From Dictyostelium discoideum (lineage: Eukaryota): a stretch of DNA of 64,000 bases. A model generated the notes under the pieces. That model searched no databases and was not told where the DNA came from. It was given only the letters and a program-made list of their open reading frames with translations. The stretch spans positions 5,216,001-5,280,000 of the forward strand of contig CM000152.2 in NCBI GenBank assembly GCA_000004695.1, in the 5' to 3' direction. The translations under genes and the position numbers were made by a program. Positions 10,571 to 64,000 of this stretch are shown here, piece by piece (positions within the stretch are counted from its first letter, which is position 1; each line of letters begins with the position of its first letter).

Positions 10571-11596
10571 AAATATAGATATAGTAAAATTAAGTAAAAA
10601 TAAATAAATTGAAAAAATATTAAGTATAAATAAATAATTTAAATAACCCAATAATAATAAAAATAATAAAAATATTTAAATGATATAAATTTTTTGGGAT
10701 TAAAACATATATTGATATAGGTATATGTAAGAAAATAACCAATAAAAATAATATATAAATAAATTTTTAAATATTATTTTTTTATAAAAAAAAAAAAAAA
10801 AAAATAATTTGGAATTAAAAACACAAACTAACTGATTTTCATTGAGAGATTGGAGAAATTGTAATTGTTTTTTTGAATAAAATTTAAAGTAAGTCAGAAT
10901 AGTATAGTATCTCTTATATAAAAAAAATATATAATATAATATAATTTTAAATTGAATTGAATAAAACGAAATTTTAAAATAATAATATTTTTTTTTTTTT
11001 TAAAATTTAAAAATTACAAAAAATATAATTTAAATCAAATATTTAAGATATACACATATTATTATTTTTATTTTTATTTTCATTATTATTATTATTATTA
11101 TTTCAAAATTTTTTTTATTTATTTTATATGTTTATGAGGATTCTAAATTATTTTAAAATTTCGTTTATCACTAAATTTAAAATTGAAAAGATTTTGATTA
11201 CTTTTATTATTATTATAATTTTAATAAAATCTGTACAAACACTTTTTGCTTGTATGTATAAACACTTTAATTTTTTTTGTATAATTTTTTTAACTTTTCA
11301 ATTTTTGTGGTTTTGTAAATTGCATAATATAAATTACATATTATAAATATTTTTTTTATGATGTATTAAATTTAAATTATTAAAATTATTTTTTTTTAAA
11401 ATAAAAAAAAAAAAAATATATATGTTTAAATCAAAAAAGTTTCAAAATTTAATTTAAAAAATTAGAATATTAAATTTGAGTGTTTATTATTTTATTTTAA
11501 AAATGCTGGATAATCATTTTTTTTTATTAATATATCGTTAATTTATTATTTTCGAATTTATGTGAATGATATAATATAATTTATATATATATATAT

Positions 11597-11892
11597 TTAG
11601 AATTTCTTTTTATATAGAGCGACAATATTTCCATTTTTATCAACAATAATTGGTGCACCTGGCAAAGCAGGATCCCATGTGAATGCAACACAATTTGATG
11701 TTTGAGCTAGACTTGTACTTAAACCATCGTATACTGTTGTGGAAAAATTAATTGATTTTGAATTACCAGTCATTGACATTAATGATTCTATAAAAAAAAT
11801 AAAAATTTTATTATTTGGAAGATTAATATTAAAAAATAAAAAATAAAAATAAAAAAAAGAAATAAAAAAGAACACTTACTTAAAATTGACAT
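11597..11892 (-). CDS. small 2-exon gene, complement(11597..11787, 11880..11892); 13-nt first exon 'MSIL' plus phase-1 intron
   Basis: The exon-2 ORF ('SLMSMTGNSKSINFSTTVYDGLSTSLAQTSNCVAFTWDPALPGAPIIVDKNGNIVAL') has GC-enriched, coding-type codon usage. Upstream, 'ATGTCAATTTTAA' is followed by a perfect GTAAGT donor (11879..11874), and a 'ttttatag' acceptor ends at 11788. This gives MSILK-SLMSM... (68 aa). No homology recognised. Confidence 0.4.
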
Positions 11893-16317: not shown

Positions 16318-18051
16318 TTTAATAAAATAATTTATTGGTTAAAATATAATTCAAATGATTTAGAATATCTTGAATCATTTGATATTAATGTACATACAAC
16401 TCATCAACTAGCATTTAAATTCGGTAATTTTGAATTATTTAAAAAATGGTTACTTTATTGTTTTGATAATGATTTAAACTCAATTTTAATGAATTATCTT
16501 CAATCTGTTTATCAATTTAACCCAACACCAAAACAAAAGCAACAGCAACACCAACAACCACAACCACCTCCTTTATTTGAATATTGTAAAAATGATGAAA
16601 AATCTCAAATTAAATTTATTAATGATTATATTAGTTTATTTTTATCATTAAATAATAATAGAATGGATAATGAATATAAAGAATATTTAAAATCTATGGG
16701 TATATTGTATCTATTATTTGGTTTAATAAAATTCAATAATTTAAAACTTTTAAAAATAATGTTTCAACATATACATAATCAAGATTTTATTTATAAATTT
16801 GAAAAATCTCAAAAAATTATCTTTCAAAATTTAATTGAGCATATAAAATCAATTGAAATTTTAGATTTTATAAATTCAAATTATTCAAAATATCTAAATG
16901 AAGATGGTTGTGAAAAAACTTTTGAAATTAAATGTTTAGATCCATTGAATATTAATATATTGGAACATTTAGAATCAATATTACCAAATGGATTTGAAAT
17001 TAAAATTAAAGAATTAAATTCATCATTACTTTTTCACATATTAAACAACTCAAATAATACAACAAAAGTAAAAATTGAAGAATTTGAATCAATATCCTTC
17101 TCTGTAAGATCAAATAATGAATTACAAACTATAATTAAAATATTATCATTGGATAAATATCATTTTAAATATCATTTATATAGACCATTTAAACATCCAA
17201 AAGATTTGAAAAATGAAAATGAAAATGAAAATGATTATTATTTCAATCATTTTAGAGACTATTCACCATTTAGAATCTCATTATTTAAATGGATTTTTAA
17301 TAATAGAAAAGAACATTTACATAGTAGCAATGGTAGATTAGAAATTGAAAAGAGTGACCTTAATGAATTACTTTATTTAATTGGTGAATTTAATGATCTA
17401 ATAACAATAGAAAAACAAGATGATAGTTCATTACGTTATGTCTATCAGAGAATTGGTGAAAAAGGTGATTTTAAAACATTAAAGTTATTATTACAATCTT
17501 TTAAAATTTCAAATGAAAATTTAAATAGATTATTGTATAGTTCCGCTGAATTTGGTAGATTAGAAATATTTCAATATTTAAAGAAATCATATCCAAATAT
17601 TTTTCAATCTTTCTTTGATGATGGTGGTTGTAGTAGTATTAGTAGTAGTAGTAGTATTGGTAGTGCTATCAATATGTATGGTGTTAATTTTGGTGTCAGT
17701 GGTGCTGGTGGTATTGATCAAACAATTGTTGAAGATAATAATAATAGAATAAAATCAACAAATTTGAATGAAATCGAATCATATAGTAAATATTATTTTT
17801 ATGATTTAAATAAAAGATGTGATTTTAGTCAAACTGATACAATCCTTGTCACCAATCAATCCTTTAAATCCTTTTCCCCATTGAAAATCCAAGAATTATT
17901 AAAAGATCAAGAATCAAAGTTTAACTTTTTAACTCAAAGAACTGGTTTCACTTCGACCTGGGATGGTAGAAATAGAAGTACTCCAAATTCAATTCAAAAA
18001 TGTTGTATGAAAAATAATCATAAAAATTTATTTCAATTTTTAAAACAATAA
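15139..18051 (+). CDS. large hypothetical protein (970 aa) with an internal poly-Asn tract
   Basis: Long uninterrupted ORF with coding-type codon usage. (AAT)n at about 16231..16318 encodes about 35 Asn. No family recognised. Confidence 0.65.
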
Positions 18052-38736: not shown

Positions 38737-39100
38737 TTACATTAAACTTAATAATCTATTTAATGTATTTTGATCTAAACTTTCAATATCAATATTTAAA
38801 TCATTTAAAATTAATTTTGAATTTTCTTTTTTCTTTGATGAGTAACGTTGTAATTTGGTGAATTCTTGTTCTAAATATTTATGAGATTGTGAAAAGTGTT
38901 CTCTTAATTCGCTTAAATCTTTTTGATTCACATCATTTGAATCTTTATCGCTATCATTAATTGTATTGTTTTCATTTGCAAATGATTCTGCTATTGTTGT
39001 AGTTTGTAATGGTGATGATAATACTGGTGATGATGTAGATGATGATGAAGATGATGAAGGTGAAGCTGTTGTAGTAGTAGTAGTTGTAGTAGTTGTAGTT

Positions 39101-39132
<32 letters not shown>

Positions 39133-39651
39133 TGGTGATAATGATGGTGAAGTTGAAGAAGTAGCAGTAGTATTAGTATTAGTAGTTGTTGTTGGAAAAT
39201 TATCATTAAATGGATTTGGTATATTGAATGCATTTGAATATAAACCATTATTGCTATTGCTGTTACCATTATTATTACTATCACTATTATTTATTGTAGC
39301 ACTTGTTGAATTTGGTGATAATGATGGTGAAGTATTTGAATTTGAATTTACAGTTAAAGAATTTGGAGGTGATGGTGAAATTATTTTCTTTTTTAAAATT
39401 AAATGAATTGTATGAACAGATGAAGAGGTTGGTCTTTGTTTAAATACTTGATCCAACACTTGTTCATCTTCTAACATTTTACCTGCGAATATAAGCTTTT
39501 GGTCTGATATCAATGGTTTCTTATCATGTTGTTTGTTAATTATCTCTTTTAATTGATATACTGTACATGTATTATTTATATCCAATGATAAATGCTCTTC
39601 ATCTCCAAATAATACAATTTTAACTTGAACCAACTCCTCGTTGCTTGACAT
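38737..39651 (-). CDS. ubiquitin-like-domain protein with Ser/Thr/Asn-rich low-complexity middle
   Basis: N-terminus 'VQVKIVLFGDEEHLSLDINNTCTVYQLKEIINKQHDKKPLISDQKLIFAGKMLEDEQVLDQV' has the beta-grasp/ubiquitin-like pattern. The C-terminal 60 aa are helical and conserved-looking. Confidence 0.6.
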
Positions 39652-40783: not shown

Positions 40784-41636
40784 ATGAATAAGTTAACAAT
40801 TTTATTCTTAATTTTGGCTTTAATTTCAGTCATTTATGCTCAACACAAATGTAAGTTATTTTCATTTTTTTTTTTTTGTTACTGTTTTGGAATTCCTTTT
40901 TTTTTTTTTTTTTACCAAGTGGTACGAAAAGACGGAAATTAAAATTTTTTTTTTTAAAAAAAAAAAAAAAATCAGAAAAAAGATTTCGGTGTTAACATTT
41001 ATTTAAATAATGGTTTTTTTTTATTTTCTTTTATTTTATTTTATCTTAATTTAAATCAATATAGTCCCATCATCATCTGAAGATTCATCATCAAATGATT
41101 CAAATAGCCAAGTAACTGGTTCACAATCATACTCTGGTTCACAATCCGATTCAAACTCAGGATCAGAATCCCACACAATTAACACCGGTTCATCATATTC
41201 TGGTTCTGGTTCTGGTTCAAGTGGTATTTCAGGCGGTTGTAAGTATTCTTTAAATTCCTTAATAAGGAAAGAAAAAAAAAAAAAAAAAAAAAGAATTGTA
41301 GAAATTAACCAAATTCATTTTAAAAAAAATAGCTGGTTCAGGTTCAGGTTCAGGTTCAGGCTCAGGTAGCGGTTCAGGTTCAGGTTCAGGTGCTGTCAGT
41401 GGTTCACAATCAGGTTCAGGTGCTGTCAGTGGTTCACAATCAGGTTCAGGTGCTGTTAGTGGTTCACAATGTAATTATATTTTGAATTAAAATTAAAAAA
41501 TAAAGATATGTATTGACTCAAATTTTTTATTTTCTTATTTTAGCTGGTGTCCAAACTGGTTCACAATCAGGTGCTGGTAGTGCTTCAGGTGCTTTCACTG
41601 GTAACCCATGTAAGTATACTTTAAATATTTTTTAAT

Positions 41637-41689
<53 letters not shown>

Positions 41690-41884
41690 CAAGATAAATT
41701 AAAAAGCACATTGAAACTAACAATTAATTTATTATTACTTTTATTCTCTCTTTAAATAGCTGGTTCTCAATCTCAAGAAATTAATACTGGTTCATCATAC
41801 AGTGGTAGTGGTAGTGGTGCCCCAACTGGTGCCGCTACTGGTTCAGGTTCAGGTTCAGGTTCATCAGGAACAGTTTACTATTAA
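40784..41884 (+). CDS. secreted Ser/Gly-repeat protein; 5 exons (40784..40850, 41065..41258, 41333..41470, 41544..41609, 41760..41884), all introns phase 1
   Basis: Signal peptide '[22 protein letters not shown]'. Every exon ends '...T|GTAAGT' (one GTAATT) and every downstream exon begins 'AG|CTGGT', rebuilding a Ser codon. Exon 3 encodes '(GSGSGS)n [27 protein letters not shown]'. The protein ends '...[13 protein letters not shown]'. Intron 4 contains (TA)23 (41641..41686). Confidence 0.65.
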
Positions 41885-42025
41885 ATAAATTTTAAATTAT
41901 AACGAAATCATATTTTTCCAGTTTTCAAAACTTGGTCACGAAACAGTACTATTTCTTGACGATTTTTTATTTAATTATTGATGATACATTTATAGTTTTT
42001 ATAATTTTTTTAAAGAATTTATTAT

Positions 42026-45000
42026 TTAATTTTTAAAGATATAGTTTATATGATTTTGAATGATTTTTTCATTAACCATTCCTCCTTCATATGAGTTCAT
42101 TGATTGTAATAATTCTTTAGTTTTCTTTGAAACACCAAATCCATGACCCAAGTTATAAACACCATTGAGTCTATCTAATGAATGGAATGTTTTGAACTTT
42201 ATACATGATAGAATCTTTGATTGATTAATGATATTCTTCCATTGTTCATATTCAACCATTTCACATCCATATTGCTTTTCCAAGAATGAGAATGATGATT
42301 TAATTGATGAAACTTCACTATTTAAACTATAGATATTTAATTGATTTGAAGATGATTTATTCCAACATTTTTCATTTCCAATCATTTTAATTGTATTTAA
42401 ACCTATCCAACCAATTGGTGATGTTAATATGTTTTTATCAATATTTGGATACTTTTTAACTGCATAACATGATTGAATAATTAGTTGGAAGAAATCAGAA
42501 TCATGACCAATACCTGTTTCTTCATGTGAAAATATAATTGGTAGTCTAATTAACATTGATGGAATACCTCTTTTTGCTGCTTCTCTAAATAAATTTTCAA
42601 CAACTACTTTACTTTTCATATAACCACCTGGTAAATTATTAATATTTTCAATTGTTGGTATTACTGTTTCTTCATCAAATTCTTTACAATTTGGTGATTC
42701 AAAGAATACTGATATTGAACTAAATCCTACAATTGGTTTTTGATAATCACCAGTTGTTGAAAGTTTAATCAATTCAATTAAACCACCAATATTTACAACT
42801 TTACTCTCTTCATAATTTGATGCCAAATTAATATCGGCACCTGAATTAATTATTAAATTAATTTGGTTTGAAACAAAACCAAAATCTAATTTTGATAATC
42901 CTAATAATGGTGATGCTAAATTACCAACGATTACTTTAACTTTTGATAATTCAAATTCATTGTGAAAGTGATATAGTTTATGATGTTTCAAATTATTAAT
43001 TATTGCATTGATTGGATTTGGTTCTGATTTTTTATTTCTAATTAAACAATATACAACTGAACAGTTTGGTGATTTAATTAAGTTTGATAATAAATGAACA
43101 CCTAAAAATCCTGTTGCACCAGTTAAAAATACTTTTGAGTCATTTCTAAAATCAATTGGATTCATTTTAATTGCTTGAATTGATTCATCTAATTTCATTT
43201 CATTTCTCCAATATTCTAAACTTGGTGCTGAATCTTTTTTAATAATTTTTTTTGATTTTCCTTTAGTTTCATTTGAATCTAGTTTTTTGATTTGTTCTAA
43301 AATAATTTGAATATTTACTCCAATTGTATTATTTTGTAATTGTTGAAGTGTAATTACATTTGATTTATTTTCTTTATCAATGAAATTCTTTAATTGTACT
43401 GAAGTTAATGAATCTGCTCCATATTCACCTAAACGAATATCTGTGTTGATCTTTGATTGTTCAATTGATAAGAGTTCTGAAATTTTATTCAAAAATTTCA
43501 TTTGGATACTCTCTGAAATACTAATATTTTCACCACCATTATTATCATTATCTTTTTCCTTGATAGAATTTAAAATGAAATCTAATCTTTGGAAAGTTGA
43601 TGTTTCTGATGCGAATTTCTTAATTGAATCATAGTTAAATTTACTAACAATTAAATTTGAATATTTATTTGAATTTTGAAGTTGTAAATCTAATGAACCT
43701 AAAATTATATTTGTTGGAATTGGAATGAAACCTTGATCATCTAACATTTTTGAAACTGAATCATTTCTTGATACGAAACCTGATGATTTAATTGTTCCCC
43801 AATTTGTGCACGTTGATGGTAAACCAATTGATTTACGATATCTTGATAGTGAATCTAATACTAAATTTGCAGAAACATAAGTACATTGGTTGAATGAGCC
43901 AAATAATGATGCAATCGATGATGCCATAACAAATTGTTTTAATTTCCATGATTTCTCAATTGAGATTTCATGTAAATTAATTGCACCCATCGTTTTAGCA
44001 TTATGTGAAATATCTAATGATTCAATATCGATTTCTTCTACTTCTTTAGTTACTTGAGTGAACGCGTAATGGAATATTGAATCAATGTTATCAATATTTG
44101 GATTTTCTAATAAAATTTGATTAATTGATTTTCTCATTTCAATTGAATCACCAACATCTACGATCTTGAAATGGAACTTGGTGTTATTATCCTTTCTTGA
44201 TATTGTTTTATTGATTAATAGTTCTAACTCCCATTTTAATGATGATTTTGATAAAATGATAATGTTTTCAAATGATTCTGTTGGAGGTGAATATTTAATT
44301 AACCATTTTAAGATTTCTAAAATAATACCTGATTGACCTGTAATAATTATATTTTTACCAATTATATTTTTTGTATCAATTTTGAAATCATATTTTAATA
44401 TTGTATGATTCTTTTCATTGTTATCTGATTCAATGAGTTGATTTAATAATCCATCACTACCGATACTACCATTTGAACAACTATGATCTAATACAATTTT
44501 ACCAATATGTTTTCTTTGATTAATATATTCAATTGCTTCTTTGACATTTTCAATCTGGAATGTTGTTATCGGAATTAGTTTCACTTTGTTTTCATTTAAA
44601 GCATTTGAAATAGATTTTAATAATCTTGAAACTACTCTTTTATTAATATGCATAAATTCGATATTATGATAACTCTTGTTAAATTTGAAATTGTTGAAAT
44701 TTAAAAATTCATTGTTATTTAAATGGGTGATTGAGAGATCAATGATTTTACCTCTTTCTTTTAAACATAAAAAGTTTGAATGTGTAAATTCATTTGGTAA
44801 TGTATTTATAATTAAATCTACTCCGTTGAATTTACCAGTTGTACCATAAAGTTGATTTAATTTTGATTTGATTTCATTTACATAGTTTTTATTTCTTGAT
44901 GAATAAATTCCAGTTATGAATGATCCATAATTATCAATTAAATATTGTTCTTTATCTTTTGAACCTACTGTGACGAAAATTGGTGATTTATGACCTTTCC

Positions 45001-48000
45001 ATTTTAATATTTCTAATGTTGCTAAACCAATACCACCTGTTGCTGAGTGAATTAAAATGACTTCATCATCATCGATATTAAAATTACCAATGTTGAACAT
45101 ACCATGAAGACATGTTGAAAAAATGATTGGTAATGACGCTGCTTCAATATGACTAATATTATTTGGTTTATGTGAAACATAAAGTACATCAGTTATAACA
45201 TGAGATGCAGTTGCATCGTGTGATACACCAAAAACATTATCGCCTACTTTAAATTCACAATTTTTATTTTCATCAGATATTCTTGTGATAATACCTGAAA
45301 ATTCGAGACCAAGTGGATTTTTAGATATTGATACATTTTCATCAATAACAACTAAACCACGATAAATTAAATAATCTTTATAATTAATACCTGTTGCTAA
45401 AACTTTGACTTCAATTTCATTCTTTTTTAATTTCTTTGGTTTTGATGCTAATTTATATTCTAAATTTGTTGAATCTAAGAGTGTCATAAAATCATTATCT
45501 TCGAATGAATTTGAATTGAAGTTTGATTTTATATTCTTTTCATTCTTTAATATTTCATAATAAATTGAATTATTTCTAATTATATATTCTCTTTGAATAT
45601 GGTTATTTGAATTTTCAATCAATTGATTAATGATTTTATTTAATAATGATGATATCGATAATTGATTATCAAAATCGATTGAATATAGATTTAAACTTGG
45701 AAATTCATTAAAGTATCTTGATGCACCTATTATTGATGATGATAAATAGTTTTTGATTTGTGAATCAATAGTAATTAATACATGTTTACATGTTAAACTA
45801 TGTTTTAAAAGTTGTTGATTAATTTCAATATATTCCATTGTAATTTGTTTGAAATTATTCATTTCTAATTGTTCCATTGATTTAATAAAGTAAATTATTG
45901 AATCATTTGTTATTGAAGGTAATAGTTGATTAAATTCATTAATATTTGATATTGTTGTTTGTTTGCGATTGGTATGATTATTTGAAATTAATTTCTTAAA
46001 TTCATTTGTATATTTTGAATGTTTTTCACAATAAATGATAATATTATCATTTTTATTGTTTGGAACAACTGTTAATTCATTTGATAATATTGTAGATTTT
46101 TGTGATTGTATTACTTTGTTCGATTTCTGAATTTTGTTCTCATTAAAACCTACACCGATTAAATTATTGATATTAAATCGGATACCAATATCATCTTCAA
46201 TTATTAATAATAATAATCCATTTGAAGAAAGAATATTAAATATTGGTTTGATGATTGTTTCATCATTATTATTATTAATGATAATATCATAGTATGATGG
46301 TTTTAACTGGGTTATATCATTTTTAAAGATTAAACTTGAATCGTGTAAAGTTGGAAGTTTATCATTTGAATTATCAATAATTGTAAATTCTATATCGATT
46401 TCTTGTAAACTATTATCGAAAATTTGATTTAATGCTTCAATGATTTGTTTTGATAGTTCTGAATCTGAAAATGATTGTAAAATTCTAAAAACAATCTTTT
46501 CATTTATTATTGGTTTGATTGTTTGTTTAATAATTTCTGTAACTGTGTTGCTGCTGCCACTGCTGCTAGAAGTTTCATTATTATCAATGGATAAAATATT
46601 AACTAATGAATCTTTACATTGTAAATTATTTGTAAATAGTTCATTTGTAGGATTATTAAGTAATAATTCATCAATCAATGGAAGAGTTGAACGGAATGAT
46701 ATATGTTCTATTTCTAATAACTTTGTACCATCTTCTAATAAAACTAAAACTGATGATTTATAGCTATCTGCTTCCAAGGAGATGAATTTTGCTTGACAAT
46801 AGATATTCTTATATTTTAATTTGTCAGTTGGTATATTTTCAGAATAAACTTTTAAACCTTCAAGTCTTTCAAATACAAACTGGCTTGAATTTGTAATGAA
46901 TCCAGTGATGGCTTGTATACAGTTATCTAATAGCGCTATATTGAAAAATGATTTGTCAAATGTTTGATAAACAGGTTTACCATTGATATCAAAGTTTTCG
47001 TAGTTTATTTGTATTCTTGCAATTGTAAGATCATTGCCAAAGTGAAATTCTTCAATTCCTTGGAAAGTTCCTAAATGAGTGATACCTGATCTTAATTTAG
47101 AGTACTTATAAACTTCTTGTTTGGAAAGGGTAGTAAAATTACATTCTGATAGCAATTGATTTATATTATATTTAGATGAGTGATTATTATTATTATTATT
47201 ATTATTATCTTTTAATGATATAAGTTGAAAGTTACCAGTACATGTTTGAACCCATTGATTTGCTTTATTGTCTTTTATGTTGAATGTAACTCTATAATCA
47301 GTGTTACCTAATTGATAAACGTTGGTTTGTAAAATATGTTTGACATTTTCTTTTAAAACAAATGGTGCTAAAAATTCCAAGTTATTAATTACAATATCTT
47401 TATTTGGGTAAAGTTTCATAATATTATCAGCATATCCAATACCTGGGAAGTAATATTTTCCTTTTACAATATGGTCTTTTAAATATTTGAATGGATTTCT
47501 ATTTATATCGATTATTGATTCATATGATTTGTTATTTGATGAATAGTTAATCATTGATTTACCTAAGTTGTTGAAAACGTTTGGTCCATTTAATCTATAT
47601 TGTTCAAAGTTAATATCAACTTTCCAATAGTATTGTTCATCGAATTGATAGTTTGGTAAAATTATAGTGCTATTGTTTCTAATGGAATTGACATCATCAT
47701 CATTGTGATTGAATTGGCATTTAAAGTTTATATCATAACCTAAACAATAAATTTGTGAAATTGTTGAATGAATTTCATCTAAATCATTGGAGTTCTTTTT
47801 GTTTGTTGATGTTAATACTGAAACTGAATTAAAGTAACTTGATGATTTTGGTATCATTTGTTTTAAATAAAATGATAAACTTGGATGTGGTGAAACTTCA
47901 ATAAATATTAATTCATTACCAAGTTTATTATTTTCAATGTGTTGATATAAATTTGAAATAGTTTGAGAGAATCTGACAGGTTGTATTATATTTTCATAAA

Positions 48001-50453
48001 CATAACTTGAATTGAATGGAGTAGTTTCATGATTAAATAAATTAGTTGTAACTGTTGAAAATGTTGGAATTGTTGATTGTCTTGATGGTATTTCTAATGG
48101 TAAAATTTCATTTTTGGTTGAGTTTTGGCTACTTGTGTGGAATGATGATAATGAACCTAAAAATGCGCAAAAGATATTATTTTCTTTTAAGTCTAATGAT
48201 ATCTCTTTTAAAATATTTTCATTACCTGCAATTACAATTGATGTTGGTGAATTATAGCATGCAACTTCAATTGTTGGATATTTATTTGAATAAAGTTCAA
48301 TAAATTCTGAATGACTGATATTGACTGATAACATTTTACCACATCCATTTGTATTATTTTGAGAAATTGATCTGTGGTAAATTAATTTACAAACTGTTTG
48401 GAAATCTACCATACCTGAACAATATGATGTTGCTATTTCACCTAAACTATGACCAACAATGAATGATACATTGATACCCCAATGTTTGTATAGTTCAAAT
48501 AATGATATTTGTAACATTAATATCGATGGTTGAGCGATTATTGGTTGATGGATTGATATAATGTCATCATCTTTAATTGATCTTAATTTATCTAAAACTG
48601 AGTATCCATAGTATTTACTTAACTCTTTATTGAATTTGTCCATCGATGATCTGAATATTGGTTCACATTCATAAAGTTGTTGAGCCATTTTATTCCATTG
48701 TGAACCTTGACCTCCGAAAACAATAACAATCAATGGTTGATTTCTTTTAATTGTAATATTTGAGGATTTGTCATTGCTTGTTTTAAAGTACTTGTTTTTA
48801 GTTTTTAATTGATCCCAATTACTTGAAATTAAAACTGATCTTTGATATAGTTTCTTTGATTTTGAATAAATTTGATTCTTAACAAACTCTTTGAATGAAT
48901 TTGTAGAAAGATTATTATCATTTATTATTAAGTCTTCATAATTTTTTAATGATTTTACTGAATTGGCTGAAAATGGTATTAAAAATATTTGTTGTTGCGA
49001 TTCAATTGGATAACTAGGGTTATTACCATTTAGACTGATTGAGTGTTCAATAAATTGTGATAAAATTAAACAACAATTTGAGCCAGTTACACCAAAGTTA
49101 TTAATAACCATTGATACTGGTTTTTCATTAATATTTGTAAATGGTATTGCTTCTGTTACAACTTTAATATTCCAATCTTTAAAGTTAATCTTTGGATTTG
49201 GTTGATCAAAATTAACATTTGGTGCATAATGTTTATTTTTAAACATTAAACAACATTTGATTAATGATGCAACACCTAATATTAATATTAATATTTATAA
49301 AAAAAAGAGTTAAAAATTAATATATATATTTTTTTTTTATATGGTTTATAAATGGTTATAGCTTACCACTTGCAGCTTCACAATGACCAATATTAGATTT
49401 GAGTGATCCAATGAGTAATGGTTTAGATGGTGTTGATGTTGTTGATGAATTTAGAGCCATTGATACACCTTCTACTTCAATTGGATCACCTGTTGGTGTT
49501 CCTGTACCATGACATTCTACGAAACTAATATCTGATGCTTTCATATTTGCACTTTTCAATGCTAATTTGATATTATCAGATTGTGATTGTTTGGATGGTG
49601 AATAAAAGTTTGATTTATCATTTAAACCACCTCCATCGACATTTGAACTAAATGAATTAATTACACAATAAATATTATTACCATCTCTAATTGCGTCTGA
49701 TAATGGTTTTAAAATTACAATACCACAACTCTCTGCACGAATGTAACCATCTGCTTCTGAATCAAATGGTTTACATTTACCTTTTTTACTTAACATATTT
49801 AAAAATGAAAATGATTTTGAAACGTATGGATCAAGTAATAAACTGGCACCACCCACAATTGATAGATTTGAAGTACCATTTTGAATTGATTGAAAACCCA
49901 TTGTAATTGAATTCAATGATGAAGAACATGCTGTATCAATTGTCATTGATGGACCTCTGATATCATATGAAAATGATAATCTATTTGAAATGGTATGAAG
50001 AACATTTGATGCGAAATAATTTTCAGATGTTTCATTAAAGTCTCTATTTGTTGTTGAATAATCTAATGTTGAGCAACCAATGAAACAAGATGTATTTGAA
50101 CCTCTAATATCGATTGGATCGATGAATGCATCTTCTAATGCTTCCCATGTACACTTTAATAGTAATCTTGTTTGTGGATCCATTAGGGGTACTTCTGATG
50201 GATTGATTGCGAAATGAACTGGATCGAAATCACTCCATTCTTTTAATGGTAATAATCCACCAAATTTATTATTAACTTCACCGAGTAAATTGATATTGTC
50301 ACTCCATCTTTCTGATGTTTCAACAATACCACTGAATCCATTCTTTAAATTATTCCATAAATGTGAAACACTACCATTATTAATTGATTCTTTACCTTGT
50401 GGAATTCTAAATCCAATACCTACAATGGCAATTTCTTTATTTCCAAATTCCAT
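42026..50453 (-). CDS. type I iterative polyketide synthase, copy A (2778 aa); complement(42026..49275, 49367..50453); KS-AT-DH-linker-ER-KR-ACP-R
   Basis: KS: Cys '[13 protein letters not shown]' (about 49930) plus '[12 protein letters not shown]' and 'GHCEAASG'. A 91-nt intron (donor GTAAGC at 49366..49361, acceptor 'ttag' at 49279..49276, phase 1) lies just before '[19 protein letters not shown]'. AT: 'GQGSQW' and 'GHSLGE' (about 48440). DH: 'HxxxGxxxxP' as '[15 protein letters not shown]' (about 47460). ER (MDR): '[15 protein letters not shown]' (about 45035). KR: '[17 protein letters not shown]' (about 44335). ACP: '[14 protein letters not shown]' (about 43410). C-terminal reductase: '[18 protein letters not shown]' (about 43115) with about 390 aa beyond it. 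There is no obvious SAM motif in the about 600-aa DH-ER spacer. Confidence 0.9.
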
Positions 50454-50996
50454 TTTCTTTTAATACACTAAAAACATTGATTCCAATAGTTGCTGATTAC
50501 ATAACGAAGGGAATGAGAGTGGACAATTAATTTTTAATCTTTTTATTTAAAAATATGGTGCTTTTTTGTTTTGTAAGGAATGTTAGAAATTATTACTATT
50601 TATTTATTTATTTTTATTTATATTTTAATATTATTACCATAAACACTTGTGTAAATAAATACATACATATAAATTATTTTTGTTAATTTTTTAAAAAGAA
50701 AAAAAAAAATTTTAAAAAAAAAAATTTAAAAAAAAAATGAAAAAAGAAAAAAAGAAAAAAATTATTAATAAAAAAAAAAAAAAAAAATAGAAAAAATATT
50801 ATTTAATAATAATTTAGTGGTGGTTTAAAACAATATATTTAATTTTATACTATATGATTGTTTAAAACAATTTGGAAATTATATTCTTTAATTTTTGGTT
50901 AATTTTTTTTTTTTTTTTTTTATCTTATTTTTTTTTTTTTTATAATTATTCTAATTAATTTAATATTATGATTTAAAAATAAAAAATTAATATTTG

Positions 50997-52600: not shown

Positions 52601-52802
52601 ATGATACAATTATCAATCAATAATCATATCTTAGTTAAACTAATTAATTTTTATAATAATTCATAATATTTGTAAATATTAAATTAAAAAAAAAAAAAAA
52701 AAAAAAAATAATTTAAAAATAAATATGGATAATAAAAATTTAGGTGGTGTAAAAAAGGTGCTTTGGATTTTAAGAAAAATGAAAAAACTAAGATTTGTTT
52801 AT

Positions 52803-55800
52803 TTAATTTTTAAAAATATAGTTTATATGATTTTGAATCATTTTTTCATTGACCATTCCTCCTTCATATGAGTTCATTGATTGTAATAATTCTTTAGTTT
52901 TCTTTGAAACTCCAAATCCATGACCCAAGTTATAAATGTTATATAAATCATCTAATGAATGGAATGTTTTTAATTTTATACATGATAGAATCTTTGATTG
53001 ATTAATGATATTCTTCCATTGTTCATATTCAACCATTTCACATCCATATTGCTTTTCCAAGAATGAGAATGAAGGGTTCATTGCTGAAACTTCACTATTT
53101 AAACTATAGATATTTAATTGATTTGAAGATGATTTATTCCAACATTTTTCATTTCCAATCATTTTAATTGTATTTAAACCTATCCAACCAATTGGTGATG
53201 TTAATATGTTTTTATCAATTTTTGGATACTTTTTAACTGCATAACATGATTGAATGATTAACTGCAAGAAATCAGAATCATGACCAATACCTGTTTCTTC
53301 ATGTGAGAATATAATTGGTGGTCTAATTAACATTGATGGAATACCTCTTTTTGCTGCTTCTCTAAATAAATTTTCAACAACTACTTTACTTTTCATATAA
53401 CCACCTGGTAAATTATTAATATTTTCAATTGTTGGTATTACTGTTTCTTCATCAAATTCTTTACAATTTGGTGCATTAAAGAATACTGATATTGAACTAA
53501 ATCCTACGATTGGTTTTTGATAATCACCAGTTGTTGAAAGTTTAATTAATTCAATGAAACCACCAATATTTACAACTTTACTCTCTTCATAATTTGATGC
53601 CAAATTAATATCGGCACCTGAATTAATTATTAAATTGATTTGATTTGAAATATAATCAAAATCTAATTTTGATAATCCTAATAATGGTGATGCTAAATTA
53701 CCAACTATAACTTTAACTTTTGATAATTCAAATTCATTGTGAAGTTGATATAGTTTATGATGTTTCAAATTATTAATTATTGCATTGATTGGATTTGATT
53801 CTGATTTTTTATTTCTAATTAAACAATATACAACTGAACAATTTGGTGATTTAATTAAGTTTGATAATAAATGAACACCTAAAAATCCTGTTGCGCCTGT
53901 TAAAAATACTTTTGAATCATTTCTAAAATCAATTGGATTCATTTTAATTGCTTGAATTGATTCATCTAATTTCATTTCATTTCTCCAATATTCTAAAGTT
54001 GGTGCTGAATCTTTTTTAATAATATATTTTGATTTTCCTTTAGTTTCATTTGAATCTAGTTTTTTGATTTGTTCTAAAATAATTTGAATATTTACTCCAA
54101 TTGTATTATTTTGTAATTGTTGAAGTGTAATTACATTTGATTTATTTTCTTTATCAATGAAATTCTTTAGTTGTACTGAAGTTAATGAATCTGCTCCATA
54201 ATCACTTAAACGAATATCTGTGTTGATCTTTGATTGTTCAATTGATAAGAGTTCTGAAATTTTATATAAAAATTTCATTTGGATACTTTCTGATATACTA
54301 ATATTTTCACCACCATTACTGTCATTATCTTTTTCTTTGATTGAATTTAAAATGAAATCTAATTTTTGGAAAGTTGATGTTTCTGATGCGAATTTCTTAA
54401 TTGAATCATAGTTAAATTTACTAACAATTAAATTTGAGTATTTATTTGAATTTTGAAGTTGTAAATCTAATGAACCTAAAATTATATTTGTTGGAATTGG
54501 AATGAAACCTTGATCATCTAACATTTTTGAAACTGAATCATTTCTTGATACGAAACCTGATGATTTAATTGTTCCCCAATTTGTGCATGTTGATGGTAAA
54601 CCAATTGATTTACGATATCTTGATAATGAATCTAATACTAAATTTGCAGAAACATAACTACATTGGTTGAATGAGCCAAATAATGATGCAATCGATGATG
54701 CCATAACAAATTGTTTTAATTTCCATGATTTCTCAATTGAAATTTCATGTAAATTAATTGCACCCATCGTTTTAGCATTATGTGAAATATTTAATGATTC
54801 AATATCGATTTCTTCTACTTCTTTAGTTACTTGAGTGAATGCATAATGGAATATTGAATCAATGTTATCAATGGTTGGATTTTCTAATAAAATTTGATTA
54901 ATTGATTTTCTCATTTCAATTGGATCACCAACATCCACACTATTGAAATGGAATTTAGTGTTATTATCCTTTCTTGATATTGTTTTATTGATTAATAGTT
55001 CTAACTCCCATTTTAATGATGATTTTGATAAAATGATAATGTTTTCAAGTGATCCTGTTGGAGGTTTTGAAGGTGAATATTTAATTAGCCATTTTAAGAT
55101 TTCTAAAATAATACCTGATTGACCTGTAATAATTATATTTTTACCAATTGTATTTATTGTATCGATATTAAAATCATATTTTAATATTGTGTGATTCTTT
55201 TCATTGTTATCTGATTCAATGAGTTGATTTAATAATCCATCACTACCGATACTACCATTTGAACAACTATGATCTAATACAATTTTACCAATATGTTTTC
55301 TTTGATTAATATATTCAATTGCTTCTTTGACATCTTCAATCTGGAATGTTGTTATTGGAATTAGTTTTAATTTATTTTCATTTAAAGCATTTGAAATGGA
55401 TTTTAATAATCTTGAAACTACTTTTTTATTAATATGCATAAATTCAATATTATGATAACTCTTGTTGAATTTGAAATTGTTGAAATTTAAAAATTCATTA
55501 TTATTTAAATGGGTGATTGAGAGATCAATGATTTTACCTCTTTCTTTTAAACATAAAAAGTTTGAATGTGTAAATTCATTTGGTAATGTATTTATAATTA
55601 AATCTACTCCGTTGAATTTACCAGTTGTACCATAAAGTTGATTTAATTTTGATTTGATTTCATTGACATAGTTTTTATTTCTTGATGAGTAAATTCCAGT
55701 TATGAATGATCCATAATTATCAATTAAATATTGTTCTTTATCTTTTGAACCTACTGTGACGAAAACTGGTGATTTATGACCTTTCCATTTTAGTATTTCC

Positions 55801-58800
55801 AATGCTGCTAAACCAATACCACCTGTTGCTGAGTGAATTAAAATTACTTCATCATCATCGATATTAAAATTACCAATGTTGAACATACCATGAAGACATG
55901 TTGAAAAAATGATTGGTAATGATGCTGCTTCAATATGACTAATATTATTCGGTTTATGTGAAATCCAAAATGCATCAGTTATAACATGAGATGCAGTTGA
56001 ATCGTGTGATACACCAAATACATTATCGCCTACTTTAAATTCACAATTTTGATTTTCATCAGATATTCTTGTGATAATACCTGAAAATTCGAGACCAAGT
56101 GGATTTTTAGATATTGATATATTTTCATCAATAATGACTAAACCACGATAAATTAAATAATCTTTATAATTAATACCTGTTGCTAAAACTTTGACTTCAA
56201 TTTCATTCTTTTTTAATTTCTTTGGTTTTGATGCTAATTTATATTCTAAATTTGTTGAATCTAAGAGTGTCATAAAATCATTATCTTCGAATGAATTTGA
56301 ATTGAAGTTTGATTTTATATTCTTTTCATTCTTTAATATTTCATAATAAATTGAATTATTTCTAATTATATATTCTCTTTGAATATGGTTATTTGAATTT
56401 TCAATCAATTGATTAATGATTTTATTTAATAATGATGATACTGATAATTGATTATCAAAATCGATTGAATATAGATTTAAACTTGGAAATTCATTAAAGT
56501 ATCTTGCTGTACCTATTATTGATGATGATAAATAGTTTTTGATTTGTGAATCAATAGTAATTAATACATGTTTACATGTTAAACTATGTTTTAAAAGTTG
56601 TTGATTAATTTCAATATATTCCATTGTAATTTGTTTGAAATTATTCATTTCTAATTGTTCCATTGATTTAATAAAGTAAATTATTGAATCATTTGTTATT
56701 GAAGGTAATAGTTGATTAAATTCATTACTATTCGATATTATTTGCTTGGAATTGGTATGATTATTTGAAATTAATTTCATAAATTCATTTGTATATTTTG
56801 AATGTTTTTCACAATAAATGATAATATTATCATTTTTATTGTTTGGAACAACTGTTAATTCATTTGATAATATTGTTGATTTTTGTGATTGTATTACTTT
56901 ATTTGAATTTTGAATTTTGTTTTCATTAAAACCTACATTGATTAAATTATTGATATTAAATTGAATACCAATATCATCTCCAACTATTAATAATAGTCCA
57001 TTTGAAGAAAGAATATTAAATATTGATTTGATGATTGTTTCATCATCACCATCATTATTATTATTAATGATAATATCATAGTATGATGGTTTTAACTGGG
57101 TTATATCATTTTTAAAGATTAAACTTGAATCGTGTAAAGTTGGAAGTTTATCATTTGAATTATCAATGATTGTAAATTCAATATCGATTTCTTGTAAACT
57201 ATTATCATCGAAAATTTGATTTAATGCTCCAATGATTTGTTTTGATAATTCTAAATCTGAAAATGATTGTAAAATTCTAAAAATAATTTTTTCATTAATA
57301 ATTGGTTTGATTGTTTGTTTAATAATTTCTGTAACTGTATTGCTGCTGCTGCTGCTAAAAGTTTGATTATTATCAATGGATAAAATATTAACTAATGAAT
57401 CTTTACATTGTAAGTTATTTGTAAATAATTCAGTTGTAGGATTATTAATTAATAATTCATCAATCAATGGAAGAGTTGAATGGAATGATAAATGTTCTAT
57501 TTCCAATAACTTTGTACCATCTTCTAATAAAACTAAAACTGATGATATATAGCTATCTGATTCCAAGGAGATGAATTTTGATTGACAATAGATATTTTTA
57601 TATTTTAATTTGTCAGTTGGTATATTTTCAGAATAAACTTTTAAACCTTCAAGTCTTTCAAATACAAACTGGCTTGAATTTGTAATGAATCCAATAATGG
57701 CTTGTGCGCAATTATCTAATAGCGCTGTATTGAAAAATGATTTGTCAAATGTTTGATAAACAGGTTTACCATTGATATCAAAGTTTTCGTAGTTTATTTG
57801 TATTCTTGCAATTGTAAGATCATTGCCAAAGTGAAATTCTTCAATTCCTTGGAAAGTTCCTAAATGAGTGATACCTGATCTTAATTTAATGTACTTGTAT
57901 GCATCTTGTTTTGAAAGAGTTGTAAAATAACATTCTGATAGTAATTGATTTATATCATATTTTGATGAGTTATGATCTTTTAATGATATAAGTTGAAAGT
58001 TACCAGTACATGTTTGAACCCATTGATTTGTTTTATTATCTTTTATGTTGAATGTGACTCTATAATCAGTGTTACCTAATTGATAAACGTTGGTTTGTAA
58101 AGTATGTTTGACATTTTCTTTTAAAACAAATGGTGCTAAAAATTCCAAGTTATTAATTACAATATCTTGATTTGGGTAAAGTTTCATAATATTATCAGCA
58201 TATCCAATACCTGGGAAGTAATATTTTCCTTTTACAATATGGTCTTTTAAATATTTGAATGGATTTCTATTTATATCGATTATTGATTCATATGATTTGT
58301 TATTTGATGAATAGTTAATCATTGATTTACCTAAGTTGTTGAAAACGTTTGGTCCATTTAATCTATATTGTTCAAAGTTAATATCAACTTTCCAATAGTG
58401 TTGTTCGTCGAATTGATAGTTTGGTAAACTGATATTGACCTTGCTGTTTCTAATGGAACTGACATCATCATTGTGATTGAATTGACACTTGAAGTTTACA
58501 TCATAACCTAAACAATAAATTTGTGAAATTGTTGAATGAACTTCATCTAAATCATTGGAGTTTTTTTTGTTTGTTGATGTTAATACTGAAACTGAATTAA
58601 AGTAACTTGATGATTTTGGTATCATTTGTTTTAAATAAAATGATAAACTTGGATGTGGTGAAACTTCAATAAATATTAATTCATTACCAAGTTTATTATT
58701 TTCAATGTGTTGATATAAATTTGAAATAGTTTGAGAGAATCTGACAGGTTGTATTATATTTTCATAAACATAACTTGAATTGAATGGAGTAGTTTCATGA

Positions 58801-61315
58801 TTAAATAAATTGGTTGTAACTGTTGAAAATGTTGGAATTGTTGATTGTCTTGATGGTATATCTAATGGTAAAATTTCATTTTTAGTTGAATGTTGACTAC
58901 TTGTGTGGAATGATGATAATGAACCTAAAAATGCACAAAAGATATTATTTTCTTTTAAATCTAATGATATCTCTTTTAAAATATTTTCATTACCTGCAAT
59001 TACAATTGATGTTGGTGAATTATAACATGCAACTTCAATTGTTGGATATTTATTTGAATAAAGTTCAATAAATTCTGAATGACTGATATTGACTGATAAC
59101 ATTTTACCACAACCGTTTGTATTATTTTGAGAAATTGATCTGTGGTAAATTAATTTGCAAACTGTTTGGAAATCTACCATACCTGAACAATATGATGTTG
59201 CGATTTCACCTAAACTATGACCAACAATGAATGATACATTGATACCCCAATGTTTGTATAGTTCAAATAATGATATTTGTAACATTAATATTGATGGTTG
59301 AGCGATTATTGGTTGATGTATTGATATAATATCATCATCTTTAATTGATCTTAATTTATCTAAAACTGAGTATCCATAGTATTTACTTAACTCTTTATTG
59401 AATTTATCCATCGATGATCGGAATATTGGTTCACATTCATAAAGTTGTTGAGCCATTTTATTCCATTGTGAACCTTGACCTCCGAAAACAATAACAACTA
59501 ATGGTTGATTTCTTTTAATAGTAATATTTGAGGATTTGTCATTATTTGTTTTAAAGTACTTGTTTTTAGTTTTTAATTGATCCCAATTAATTGAAATTAA
59601 AACTGATCTTTGATATAATTTCTTTGATTTTGAGTAAATTTGATTCTTAACAAACTCTTTGAATGAATTTGTAGAAAGATTATTATCATTTATTATTAAG
59701 TCTTCATAATTTTTTAATGATTTTACTGAATTGGCTGAAAATGGTATTAAAAATCTTTGTTGTTGTTGTGATTCAATTGGATAACTAGGGTTATTACCAT
59801 TTTGATTGATTGTTCAATAAACTGTGATAAAACTAAACAACAATTTGAACCAGTTACACCAAAGTTATTAATAACCATTGATACTGGTTTTTCATTAATA
59901 TTTGTAAATGGTATTGCTTCTGTTACAACTTTAATATTCCAATCTTTAAAGTTAATCTTTGGATTTGGTTGATCAAAATTAACATTTGGTGCATAATGTT
60001 TATTTTTAAACATTAAACAACATTTGATTAATGATCCAACACCTGAAATTAATATTTATAAAATAAAAAAAAAGTTAGAATTAATATTTTTGGTTTTTTT
60101 TATTTTATTTTATAAATGGTTATAACTTACCACTTGCAGCTTCACTATGACCAATATTAGATTTGAGTGATCCAATGAGTAATGGTTTAGATGGTGTTGA
60201 TGTTTTTGATGAATTTAGAGCCATTGATATGCCTTCTACTTCAATTGGGTCACCTGTTGGTGTTCCTGTACCATGACATTCTACGAAACTAATATCTGAT
60301 GCTTTCATATTTGCACTTTTCAATGCTAATTTGATATTATCAGATTGTGATTGTTTGGATGGTGAATAAAAGTTTGATTTATCATTTAAACCACCTCCAT
60401 CGACATTTGAACTAAATGAATTAATTACACAATAAATATTATTACCATCTCTAATTGCGTCTGATAATGGTTTTAAAATTACAATACCACAACTCTCTGC
60501 ACGAATGTAACCATCTGCTTCTGAATCAAATGGTTTACATTTACCTTTTTTACTTAGCATATTTAAAAATGAAAATGATTTTGAAATGTATGGATCTATA
60601 TAAATAAATGTATATAATAATTAAAAAAAAAAGAAAAAGAAAATTGAAGAATAAAAATAAAATAATAAATGTTTAAATTCTGAATTAACATACCAAGTAA
60701 TAAACTGACACCACCCACAATTGATAGATTTGAAGTACCATTTTGAATTGATTGAAAACCCATTGCAATTGAATTCAATGATGAAGAACATGCTGTATCA
60801 ATTGTCATTGATGGACCTCTGATATCATATGAAAATGATAATCTATTTGAAATGGTATGAAGAACATTTGATGCGAAATAATTTTCAGATGTTTCATTAA
60901 AGTCTCTATTTGTTGTTGAATAATCTAATGTTGAGCAACCAATGAAACAAGATGTATTTGAACCTCTAATATCGATTGGATCGATGAATGCATCTTCTAA
61001 TGCTTCCCATGTACACTTTAATAGTAATCTTGTTTGTGGATCCATTAGGGGTACTTCTGATGGATTGATTGCGAAATGAACTGGATCGAAATCACTCCAT
61101 TCTTTTAATGGTAATAATCCACCAAATTTATTATTAACTTCACCGAGTAAATTGATATTGTCACTCCATCTTTCTGATGTTTCAACAATACCACTGAATC
61201 CATTCTTTAAATTATTCCATAAATGTGAAACACTACCATTATTAATTGATTCTTTACCTTGTGGAATTCTAAATCCAATACCTACAATCGCAATTTCTTT
61301 ATTTTTAAATTCCAT
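52803..61315 (-). pseudogene. type I PKS copy B: near-identical paralog of copy A, 3 exons with a frameshifting 4-nt deletion in exon 3. Exons about 60694..61315 and 60130..60595; exon 3 is the two fragments 59812..60042 and 52803..59811, broken by the frameshift at 59811/59812
   Basis: Line-by-line, the sequence matches copy A with 0-4 differences per 60 nt (offset about 10.8 kb). Same domain motifs (KS 'GHSEAASG', AT 'GHSLGE', R '[10 protein letters not shown]'). Relative to A it has (i) an extra 98-nt intron 60596..60693 (GTATGT...tatatag) splitting 'LLL|D|PY' in the KS domain; (ii) the shared KS-C-terminal intron 60043..60129; (iii) a 4-nt deletion at about 59811/59812 (A 'GAACACTCAATCAGTCTAAATGG' vs B 'GAACAATCAATCAAAATGG', minus strand). 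This puts '[10 protein letters not shown]' into a frame that stops after '[18 protein letters not shown]'. The remaining 2217-codon ORF (52803..59456 and open up to about 59811) is in another frame. No plausible intron rescues it. The pseudogene call assumes the sequence is correct. Confidence 0.7.
60596..60693 (-). other. copy-B-specific phase-1 intron within the KS domain (absent from copy A)
   Basis: B has 98 extra AT-rich nt that begin GTATGTTAATTC and end TTTATATAG exactly between codons that are contiguous in A ('TTACTTG|ATCCATAC'). Confidence 0.75.
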
Positions 61316-61932
61316 TTTTTTTTTTTTTTTTTTTTTTTAGTACACCAAAAATAAAAATAAAATAAAAAAAAATAAAACAATTTATACCATTTAAAAATAT
61401 TACTATTTTGAAGGACCAAAGTGAGAAATGAAAACTTTGCTCTTGATAGTTATGATTACATTCCAAAGGGGGCTGATTATTAATTAATTTTAAATCTTTT
61501 GGTTATAAAAAAAAAAAAATAAAATTGAGAATTTTTAAAAAAAAAAAATTAAAAAAGAAAATAAAAAAAAATTAAAAAAAAAAATTAAAAAATCTCCAAA
61601 AATATCTTATTACCTAATTATCATCGGGAAAAAAAAAAGTTGATTAGAAACAAAAATTATTTTAAATTTTTATTGGAGCCTGTGGTTTTTGCAAGATATT
61701 TTAAATAACACTTTGAAACCAAAAGTTGTAATTAGTAAAAATAAAAAAAAAAAAAATAGAAGATTATATTTGGGCAAATAAAAAAAAAAATTTTATGGTA
61801 TTAAATTAAATATTTAATTTAGCCATGAGATTTAAATAATTTAAGATTTATTTTTTACACTTTGGGATTTTTTTTTATTTTTTTATTTCCGGAACTCTTT
61901 TAATTAAGGATGTTGTAGGGAATTTTCAATAA

Positions 61933-62420: not shown

Positions 62421-64000
62421 ATGAATTGTGGCGGAGATAGAAATATATCAAAAGAAGTGTGTTTAGAAGTAATTAATGATTATAGAATGGTATCACTCTG
62501 GGAAGAAATGCATAAAGGTCATATAGGAAGAGATGCAACCTATGGGAACTACAAGACTAAATATTATAATATGGGATTGTATTCTTTTGTATCTGATGCA
62601 GTAGATACGTGTGACATTTGCCAACGAAATAGAATAAAAGGTTTGGTATCAATCATTTTTTATATGATGTTTTGTAACTTTTATATTAAAACTCTGTGAA
62701 AGTATGGCACTGCGATAATGGACGTGAATTTAAAAACAAAGTCCAAAAAGAATTCCTAAAACTTTTTCCAGGCTCCAAGTCAGCACATGGAGCTCCTCGT
62801 ACACCAACAACTCAAGGTATGGTAGAAAGATTGAATCGAACTATCAAGGAGAGGATCTCAAAATTAAAACAACAAGAGTATGATATTGTGAACAATATAA
62901 ATTATCGATATGTTTATTAATTAATCATTTATAAATAAATTTTAGTTTTCTTGATGGTACTTCTAGGTCTCTTTCTGAACTATTAAAACAAGCTTTGTAT
63001 GATTACAATAATACAAAAACAAGAACAATTAAAATGACACCATCTCAAGCTGTTGGTATTGTACCTTTGTTTATTAATGTGCAATCAGAACAAGACTCTC
63101 AATCAATTGGTGTTTCAGATGTTTCAAAAGAAGAAATAACAGCTATTATTCTTGAAAATCTCACAAGTTACCAAAATCAATGGAATTCAAAACCACCAAA
63201 GGGATTGAAAGTTGGTGATACTGTACTCTTTCTAGAAATTAAAAAAAATAATGTAAGTAATTAAAACATAAAGATTAATAATATATGAAACAGTAATAAT
63301 TAACAAATTTTATATTTAATTCTAATAGAAAATATTGATTTTGTGTAAAATTCATAAGGTAATACAGGAAGACACTAAACAACTTTATAAACTTGAATTT
63401 TTGGAAGATGGAATCAATAGCCTTCAAAAAAAAGGTTTATACTCTGGTTTTGTAGGAGGTAACAAGTTGGTTCTTTATAAACAATCAACAGTTGATATTT
63501 TTAGAACATCGCCAAACATACAAAAAGATATTGATTCTTTTACTTCTGGTCTTTATTTAAATAATGATGGGAAAGTTATTGAATTTCTGGTTCAGTTTAT
63601 TAAAAATCTTGGTAAGGATTTATCCAATTTCAACTTGCATCAATTGGTAACACAAAATGATCCATTTAGGGTTTTGGAAGATGCTCTTAACAATCCATCA
63701 AATATTCCACCTATCATTAACGATAATCCATTTCAACACAAACTCAATAATGAAATGGAACAAGAAGAAATACTCCCATTTTTAAATAATAATCCAACAG
63801 CGCCAAATTTAATGAATTGTTTGAGAAAGGATATGAATTTAAAAGAAATAGTACCACCAATACCTCAAGTGCAAATAATACCATCATATACTATACCACA
63901 ATCTGGTAGTGGTATAGTAACAACTGTTAAACGTCTCAGAGGCCGTCCTCATAAGATACCAATTGTTAATAAACCTCCTTTAAAATCACATTCTAAACCA
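62421..64000 (+). mobile_element. degenerate, 5'-truncated Ty3/gypsy-type LTR-retrotransposon pol fragment (integrase zinc finger, DDE core remnant, C-terminal region); continues beyond the window
   Basis: 'HKGHIGRDATYGNY...CDICQRNRIKG' is the integrase HHCC zinc-binding motif. 'WHCDNGREFKN...HGAPRTPTTQGMVERLNRTIKE' is the rve-core DDE region (second D and E). The ORF is broken into at least 3 frames (62421..62699, 62696..62920, 62995..63264, then an open frame to 64000 ending '...KRLRGRPHKIPIV', AT-hook-like). Only about 20 aa separate the zinc finger from the 'HCDNGREF' motif, implying an internal deletion. No RT/RNase H or LTR lies upstream within 61340..62420. Confidence 0.65.

Follow-up and report, generated by a model that had tools for sequence, protein, structure and literature searches.

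Probable precise loss of an intron from one of two tandem polyketide synthase genes of Dictyostelium discoideum

Two tandem genes and the insert that separates them

The stretch analysed here, called the window, comprises 64,000 nucleotides (nt) of Dictyostelium discoideum contig CM000152.2 (assembly GCA_000004695.1, positions 5,216,001 to 5,280,000). It is extremely A+T-rich in base composition and carries on its minus strand, at ~42–61.3 kb, two type I polyketide synthase (PKS) genes in tandem. These genes, copy A and copy B, are the subject of this report, and in particular a 98-nt insert that lies in the ketosynthase (KS) domain of copy B and has no counterpart in copy A. Coordinates are window positions, on the minus strand unless marked (+).

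Copy A consists of exon 1 (49367–50453), a sole intron of 91 nt (49276–49366, GTAAGC...ATTAG) and exon 2 (42026–49275), which ends at the stop codon. Its spliced product of 2,778 amino acids (aa) exactly matches Probable polyketide synthase 19 of D. discoideum AX4 (Q54T36, XP_640415.1, DDB_G0282027), which identifies the window as DNA of AX4. Copy B starts with the ATG at 61315, immediately 5′ of which lies an A25 run. Its exon 1 (60694–61315) holds codons 1–207 and base 1 of codon 208, that is, the N-terminal part of the ketosynthase, and is followed by intron 1, the 98-nt insert (60596–60693). Exon 2 (60131–60595) runs from the rest of codon 208 to base 1 of codon 363; then come intron 2 (60043–60130, 88 nt, GTAAGT...TTCAG), homologous to the sole intron of copy A, and exon 3 (52803–60042), which reaches the stop codon with a single interruption, a frameshift near 59797–59821. 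Copy B may be the gene annotated as the pks20 pseudogene. The raw open reading frames (ORFs) of A exon 1, B exon 1 and the long ORF of B had no exact match in the protein collection, and the library of papers searched contained none on Dictyostelium pks19, pks20 or their DDB identifiers. The PKS genes of D. discoideum are reported to number 40, five pseudogenes included (PMC9618038).

Both genes belong to the type I iterative polyketide synthases, judging from the KS catalytic Cys, the two His motifs and the further domains. The motifs DTACSSS, ECHGTGT and NIGHSE are all present in spliced copy B, which is matched by PF00109, PF02801 and PF16197 (Pfam); a full domain list is on record for P0124, a member of the pks19 90% identity cluster. 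The two copies align from 8 nt 5′ of the ATG to the stop codon at 95.8–99% identity, with ~10 in-frame triplet indels and one large gap, the 98 nt found only in B. An Asn run differs in length between A and B by (AAT)7, or 21 nt (47182–47202 vs ~57971).

The insert begins and ends with GTATGTTAATTC...TTTATATAG, giving GTATGT...TATAG, and its composition of 60 T, 27 A, 7 C and 4 G amounts to 88.8% A+T. It is placed after base 1 of codon 208 (G|AT, Asp), in phase 1. At the homologous position copy A reads without a break, TTATTACTTG|ATCCATAC, with its CTTG|ATCC junction at 49832|49831, and B minus the 98 nt reproduces this junction exactly when the GT...AG boundary is chosen. The boundary is ambiguous by one base, a shared G, and no target-site duplication longer than one base is present. 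Since 98 is not a multiple of three, reading through the insert shifts the frame: 32 additional codons are followed by a stop. Accordingly, the PF00109 match on spliced B covers profile positions 2–252 of 252 and runs through residue 208, and on the read-through ORF it ends at profile position 206 of 252. The insert has a G+C content of 11.2%, close to that of the other intron of B (11.4%) and far from the 31% of the flanking exons. Its length can be set beside the D. discoideum mean intron size of 146 nt (PMC3188802 Table 1) and the median of ~77 nt for conserved introns (PMC4683709).

Related genes are known from an assembly deposited as ‘Dictyostelium cf. discoideum’, which contributes five proteins to the pks19 90% identity cluster. 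Three of its deposited protein models (P0122, P0123, P0126) read GGVSLLLDPYIS across the site, with the homologous intron spliced out. A scan of 59900–61500 against Rfam for an intron-hosted RNA gave no match at E ≤ 1. The consensus-like ends and donor, the restored frame and domain, the composition and length, and the conserved position and phase are those of a U2-type GT-AG intron, and by these several independent lines of sequence evidence the B insert is best described as an ordinary spliceosomal intron of that type. The initial annotation had proposed just this, namely a canonical, AT-rich phase-1 intron in copy B and an uninterrupted exon in copy A, together with a second intron common to both copies after GH(C/S)EAAS-G|, and the genes bear it out on all three points. 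As for an assembly or sequencing artefact in copy B, the copies are similar enough to complicate assembly and nothing more specific speaks for it. The splice signals of the insert are perfect and its phase is right, and the separately assembled genome of a related species has homologous introns at this site; we regard this explanation as practically negligible.

The initial annotation also implied a first inactivating lesion in B, which is indeed there: the gene has one reading-frame lesion, the loss of 4 nt from a CAATCAATCA-like repeat (within 59797–59821). At this site 7/7 of the remaining copies are intact, namely A and the six pks19-like genes of D. cf. discoideum. Downstream of the insert, the pairwise A/B ratio of nonsynonymous to synonymous divergence (dN/dS) is 0.22 over 2,328 codons. 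Because the frameshift is unique among eight copies and dN/dS is this low, the data suggest either a recent inactivation of copy B or an error in the base call. With the same ratio, B cannot have been untranslatable beyond codon 208 ever since A and B diverged. It is therefore very unlikely that the insert goes unspliced and forms a second lesion, as the initial annotation had allowed, or that B is a long-dead pseudogene in which splice signals are irrelevant. That B is already broken by the frameshift would fit such a gene, but its splice signals are intact, its catalytic motifs are preserved after splicing with a full-length KS domain match, and the homologous introns at the same position and phase in intact paralogs are spliced in the deposited models. 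Moreover, a pairwise ratio of 0.22 holds B’s own ratio well under 1, as expected under purifying selection, and a frameshift found in B alone among the eight copies would be recent. Through most of its history copy B would have functioned and been spliced, until the 4-nt deletion recently disabled it.

Polarity of the intron difference

Loss in A and gain in B predict different states in more distant PKS genes, the comparison that the initial annotation had put forward for polarising the difference. A homology query with the KS region matched proteins that were all shorter than ~800 aa, with a best identity of 59%; these were used to fetch eight genomic loci (L001–L008), in which the intron state at the homologous codon was scored by reading the DNA. 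An intron at the same Asp codon and in the same phase was found in eight paralogs of 41–64% protein identity from D. discoideum, D. citrinum and D. purpureum: two tandem genes in L001 (a D. discoideum strain), two in L004, three in L002 (D. citrinum) and one in L005 (D. purpureum). Most of these introns start with GTATG like that of B, a donor common to L002, L004 and L005. The site is uninterrupted in L003 (a D. discoideum PKS), L006 (a divergent D. firmibasis gene), L007 (T. lacteum) and L008 (C. fasciculata). Neighbour-joining of the KS region unites A and B as a sister pair with 100% bootstrap, and all other members of their clade have the intron.

Because distant paralogs and the other members of the A/B clade have this codon interrupted in an identical phase, the intron is ancestral to the A/B pair; it follows that copy A lost the intron precisely and that B did not gain it. 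The contrary history, in which the intron arose in the lineage of B and copy A keeps the ancestral uninterrupted state, we consider extremely improbable. In its favour, 98 putative intron gains are reported in Dictyostelium (PMC4683709), and the remotest of the KS genes compared (L006, L007 and L008) lack the intron, which was therefore gained at an older point in the family. Against a gain in B stand the eight paralogs interrupted at the same codon and phase, three D. cf. discoideum copies that share the intron (see below), and the lack of a target-site duplication beyond one base. A second copy of the insert, another of the things the initial annotation had proposed looking for, was not found in the window or in L001–L008: the best non-self match scored 58 bits, when shuffled sequences average 56 and reach 67. 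With no source copy in these sequences and with the intron present in related genes, the insert does not behave as one gained from a mobile or duplicated element.

Several further observations were made at these loci. In D. citrinum L002, the same-position intron contains (ATT)n tracts that measure ~150–240 nt (6300–6460 and 17047–17290), and the next intron has an (ATA)n tract (11515–11605). The tblastn program translates these L002 tracts as poly-Ile, which can mask introns in protein-based mapping, and it also ran through the intron of the first PKS gene of L001. The idea that the L001 genes form another tandem pair differing in intron state was rejected, as the DNA shows the intron in the first PKS. 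The second PKS of L001 (9957–10920) is 5′-truncated: coding similarity starts ~75 nt upstream of the conserved intron, 5′ of which lies A+T-rich non-coding sequence, and the deposited model P0008 (278 aa) begins there.

The second KS intron also varies among the loci. In L002 (11433–11607), L004 (11513–11602) and L005 (11168–12923) it lies after GH(T/L)E-G|, in the same phase and exactly 9 nt (three codons) upstream of its position in the pks19 group; the L001 pair and L003 have no intron at this location. The 9-nt offset may reflect intron sliding or independent origins.

Intron states in two taxa and the proposed history

Although A and B are nearly identical, their differences are unevenly spread. 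Synonymous divergence (dS) is 0.0075 over codons 1–207, 0.03 over codons 208–362 and 0.094 from codon 451 to the end, and around the intron site there are 4 differences in ~112 nt, set between identical runs of 522 and 307 nt. This pattern is strong evidence that gene conversion has acted between A and B, and the high identity of the two copies is a product of concerted evolution. On the start side (50454–50461 in A, 61316–61340 in B) similarity reaches only ~8 nt 5′ of the ATG, and on the stop side (42022–42026 and 52799–52803) it goes no further than the stop codon. The flanks beyond do not align, and homogenisation appears to be confined to the transcribed or coding unit.

In D. cf. discoideum, a single contig (JBTAPI010000107.1) carries six or more pks19-like genes in tandem. 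Three of them (c6580, c6582 and c6585) have an intron at the site, and this intron aligns with that of B with z = 3.7–5.2, beating all 300 shuffles. Two others, c6578 and c6586, which lie at opposite ends of the array, are without it exactly as copy A is. Whichever segment of the gene is compared, A groups with B and the D. cf. discoideum copies group with one another, and 138 columns are fixed between the species. Across 7,041 ungapped columns, a single one splits the seven scored copies by intron state. It lies 9 nt past the site, where the base is G (Val) in copy A (49823), c6578 and c6586, and A (Ile) in copy B (60587), c6580, c6582 and c6585. By our own estimate (19 of ~7,000 columns), the chance that a lone column would fall within 9 nt of the site is ~0.3%. 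Within D. cf. discoideum, seven of the nine columns uniting the intron-less c6578 and c6586 fall between −497 and +521 of the site. Separately, the neighbours c6578 and c6580 (L009 and L010) share 70 derived columns absent from other copies, many of them crowded at ~+2,600 to +3,200 nt from the intron site; this stretch resembles a discrete conversion tract, or else a segment that both genes inherited from an ancestor.

Taken together, we favour a history, to which we assign a probability of roughly 0.8, that combines an ancestral intron, a single precise loss in the lineage of copy A before the species split, and concerted evolution since. The intron would already have been present in the ancestor shared by a large clade of type I PKS genes of group-4 Dictyostelium. 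It would have been lost in a single event ahead of the split between D. discoideum and D. cf. discoideum, at a locus that by then held at least two tandem copies, and copy A (pks19) would descend from the copy that precisely lost it. Gene conversion within each species would then have homogenised the copies. Conversion tracts that span the site would transfer the intron state along with the bases closest to it, leaving only very tight linkage, and both states, each with its linked +9 base, would persist as alternatives in the array.

The by-species clustering is also what separate tandem duplications in each species would predict, with independent precise losses in copy A and in c6578 and c6586. 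Such recurrent loss gains some credit from the frequency of precise loss in the genus and from L003, another D. discoideum PKS without the intron. It would, however, take at least two exact deletions accompanied each time by the same A-to-G change at +9, the sole column among 7,041 that tracks intron state and one that lies only 9 nt away. It would also leave unexplained why c6578 and c6586, at opposite ends of the array, have a local variant island in common, and gene conversion accounts for the clustering by species without independent duplication. We therefore judge recurrent loss to be decidedly improbable.

If the single-loss history holds, one statement of the initial annotation has to be divided. 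It called such a difference rare between paralogs this similar. The similarity is as measured, but it misleads because the identity stems from concerted evolution and D. cf. discoideum split off only after the loss; rarity, for its part, does not hold, as precise loss is common in Dictyostelium (PMC4683709).

The loss itself would most probably have occurred by recombination with a reverse-transcribed, spliced messenger RNA (mRNA), a step that we infer from its footprint: removal is exact, the flanking exons have no indel, and both the sister copy and outgroup relatives still carry the intron. In the genus, Ma et al. (2015, PMC4683709) counted 441 precise losses in D. discoideum and 202 in D. 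purpureum (643 in total), which they ascribed to gene conversion by reverse-transcribed mRNA. The recombination tract would have to be short, stopping before the next intron 465 nt downstream, because the 5′-most intron is gone and the next is kept. It is unlikely, though less so than recurrent loss, that the intron was instead removed by a genomic deletion (replication slippage or end joining) or by conversion from an intron-less paralog. Such routes would suit the loss of a 5′-most intron next to one retained, a pattern at odds with the trends that the reverse-transcription model predicts; the intron is bordered by a repeat of 1 nt (G), and intron-less paralogs do exist, L003 among them. Yet the deletion is exact to the base with a microhomology of just 1 nt, and the genus-wide survey counted 2 imprecise against 643 precise losses and found no support for end joining (PMC4683709). 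As to conversion, the flanks of the A junction are B-like rather than foreign, their 4 differences in ~112 nt amounting to background divergence, which excludes an intron-less donor diverged by 40–50%.

Several points weigh against the favoured history. The main support for a shared loss comes from a single perfectly associated base, at +9, together with the island of variants near the site in D. cf. discoideum, and independent duplications in each species would equally be expected to produce the clustering by species. The state of c6581 could not be read, as its locus starts 42 nt past the site, and this gene was left out of the seven-copy scoring. Deep nodes of the KS tree are weak (51–58% bootstrap), and splicing of copy B itself we infer from the features of its sequence. 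Regarding the mechanism, the reverse-transcription model predicts that losses are biased away from the 5′ end and that adjacent introns are lost together, although these are statistical trends (PMC4683709). Neither is seen here: the lost intron is the 5′-most, 622 nt (7.5%) into an 8.3-kb coding sequence, and 8/8 copies retain the following intron, which lies 465 nt downstream.

A more tentative idea, possible but in our view rather less probable than its opposite, is that the 98-nt presence/absence difference acts as an edge or barrier for conversion tracts between the tandem PKS copies. If true, this would explain the persistence of the two states across speciation, the island of background divergence inside otherwise identical sequence, and the shrinking of linkage between the species to the lone +9 base. 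The site would then be a natural ruler for the endpoints of conversion tracts. It would also be one of few markers that reveal how the paralogs really descend, in a family where apparent ‘species-specific expansions’ partly reflect concerted evolution.

Elsewhere in the window, three broken ORFs lie just upstream of copy B at 62421–63264 (+); they are integrase-core-like (HCDNGREF..., PRTPTTQGMVERLNRTIKE) and look like a degraded retroelement. Beyond the far end of copy A, a 304-aa ORF at 38737–39651 has a ubiquitin-like N-terminus followed by long Asn/Thr/Ser runs. It gave no match at E ≤ 1e-5 among 5.8 billion proteins and no exact match, which is unexpected of a gene in AX4; its annotation may differ, or the collection may lack it. 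Between this ORF and pks19 sits a putative multi-exon gene (40784–41950, +) encoding a signal peptide and then Ser/Gly-rich repeats (GSGSGS..., plus a 10-residue repeat present three times). It was tried as a synteny anchor and rejected, its complexity being too low.

Comparison with known systems and significance

Concerted evolution by gene conversion is familiar from tandem families such as the ribosomal DNA and the globins, among others. As in those families, the paralogs within a species are here closer to each other than orthologues are between species, over the whole gene, and identity is mosaic with long identical runs. Unlike in them, a 98-nt presence/absence difference and one linked base have outlasted homogenisation and expose an older history. 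Presence/absence polymorphisms of introns within species are also known, with cases in Drosophila (jingwei), Daphnia and Arabidopsis. The PKS genes resemble these in that two states of one intron site coexist, but the states are carried by paralogous copies of one haploid genome and not by alleles of one locus. Finally, introns can be gained from introner-like or transposon-derived elements, as in Micromonas and fungi. A short GT...AG insert in one copy only would suit such a gain, whereas the lack of other insert copies in the window and L001–L008, the lack of a target-site duplication and a position common to distant paralogs do not, and the B insert is not a member of this class.

The closest parallel is with the precise losses described across Dictyostelium (PMC4683709), which share the exact deletion of a short A+T-rich intron, unchanged flanking codons and relatives that retain the intron. 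The setting is similar as well, a retroelement-rich genome, with an integrase fragment here adjoining copy B. That survey, however, dealt with one-to-one orthologues, and the present genes are tandem paralogs of a lineage-specific family; they also depart from its trends, in that the 5′-most intron is lost and a neighbour 465 nt away is kept. Precise loss is thus a well-known process of which this is a new example. What is less usual is that it concerns tandem paralogs, that both states occur in two taxa despite concerted evolution, and that the case departs from the positional trends of the complementary DNA (cDNA) model. The loss of the 5′-most intron from an 8.3-kb gene next to one retained 465 nt away makes it a useful counter-example to a 3′-biased cDNA model.

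For annotation, copy B should be modelled with two introns and one recent frameshift. For the history of the genes, the AX4 pair and the at least six D. cf. discoideum genes would be older than their 96–99% identity implies, and the intron state together with the +9 base offers a simple marker for copy ancestry and for the limits of conversion tracts in the array. The PKS family has been described as lineage-specifically expanded, and the expansion read from by-species clustering (PMC3188802) may partly reflect gene conversion.

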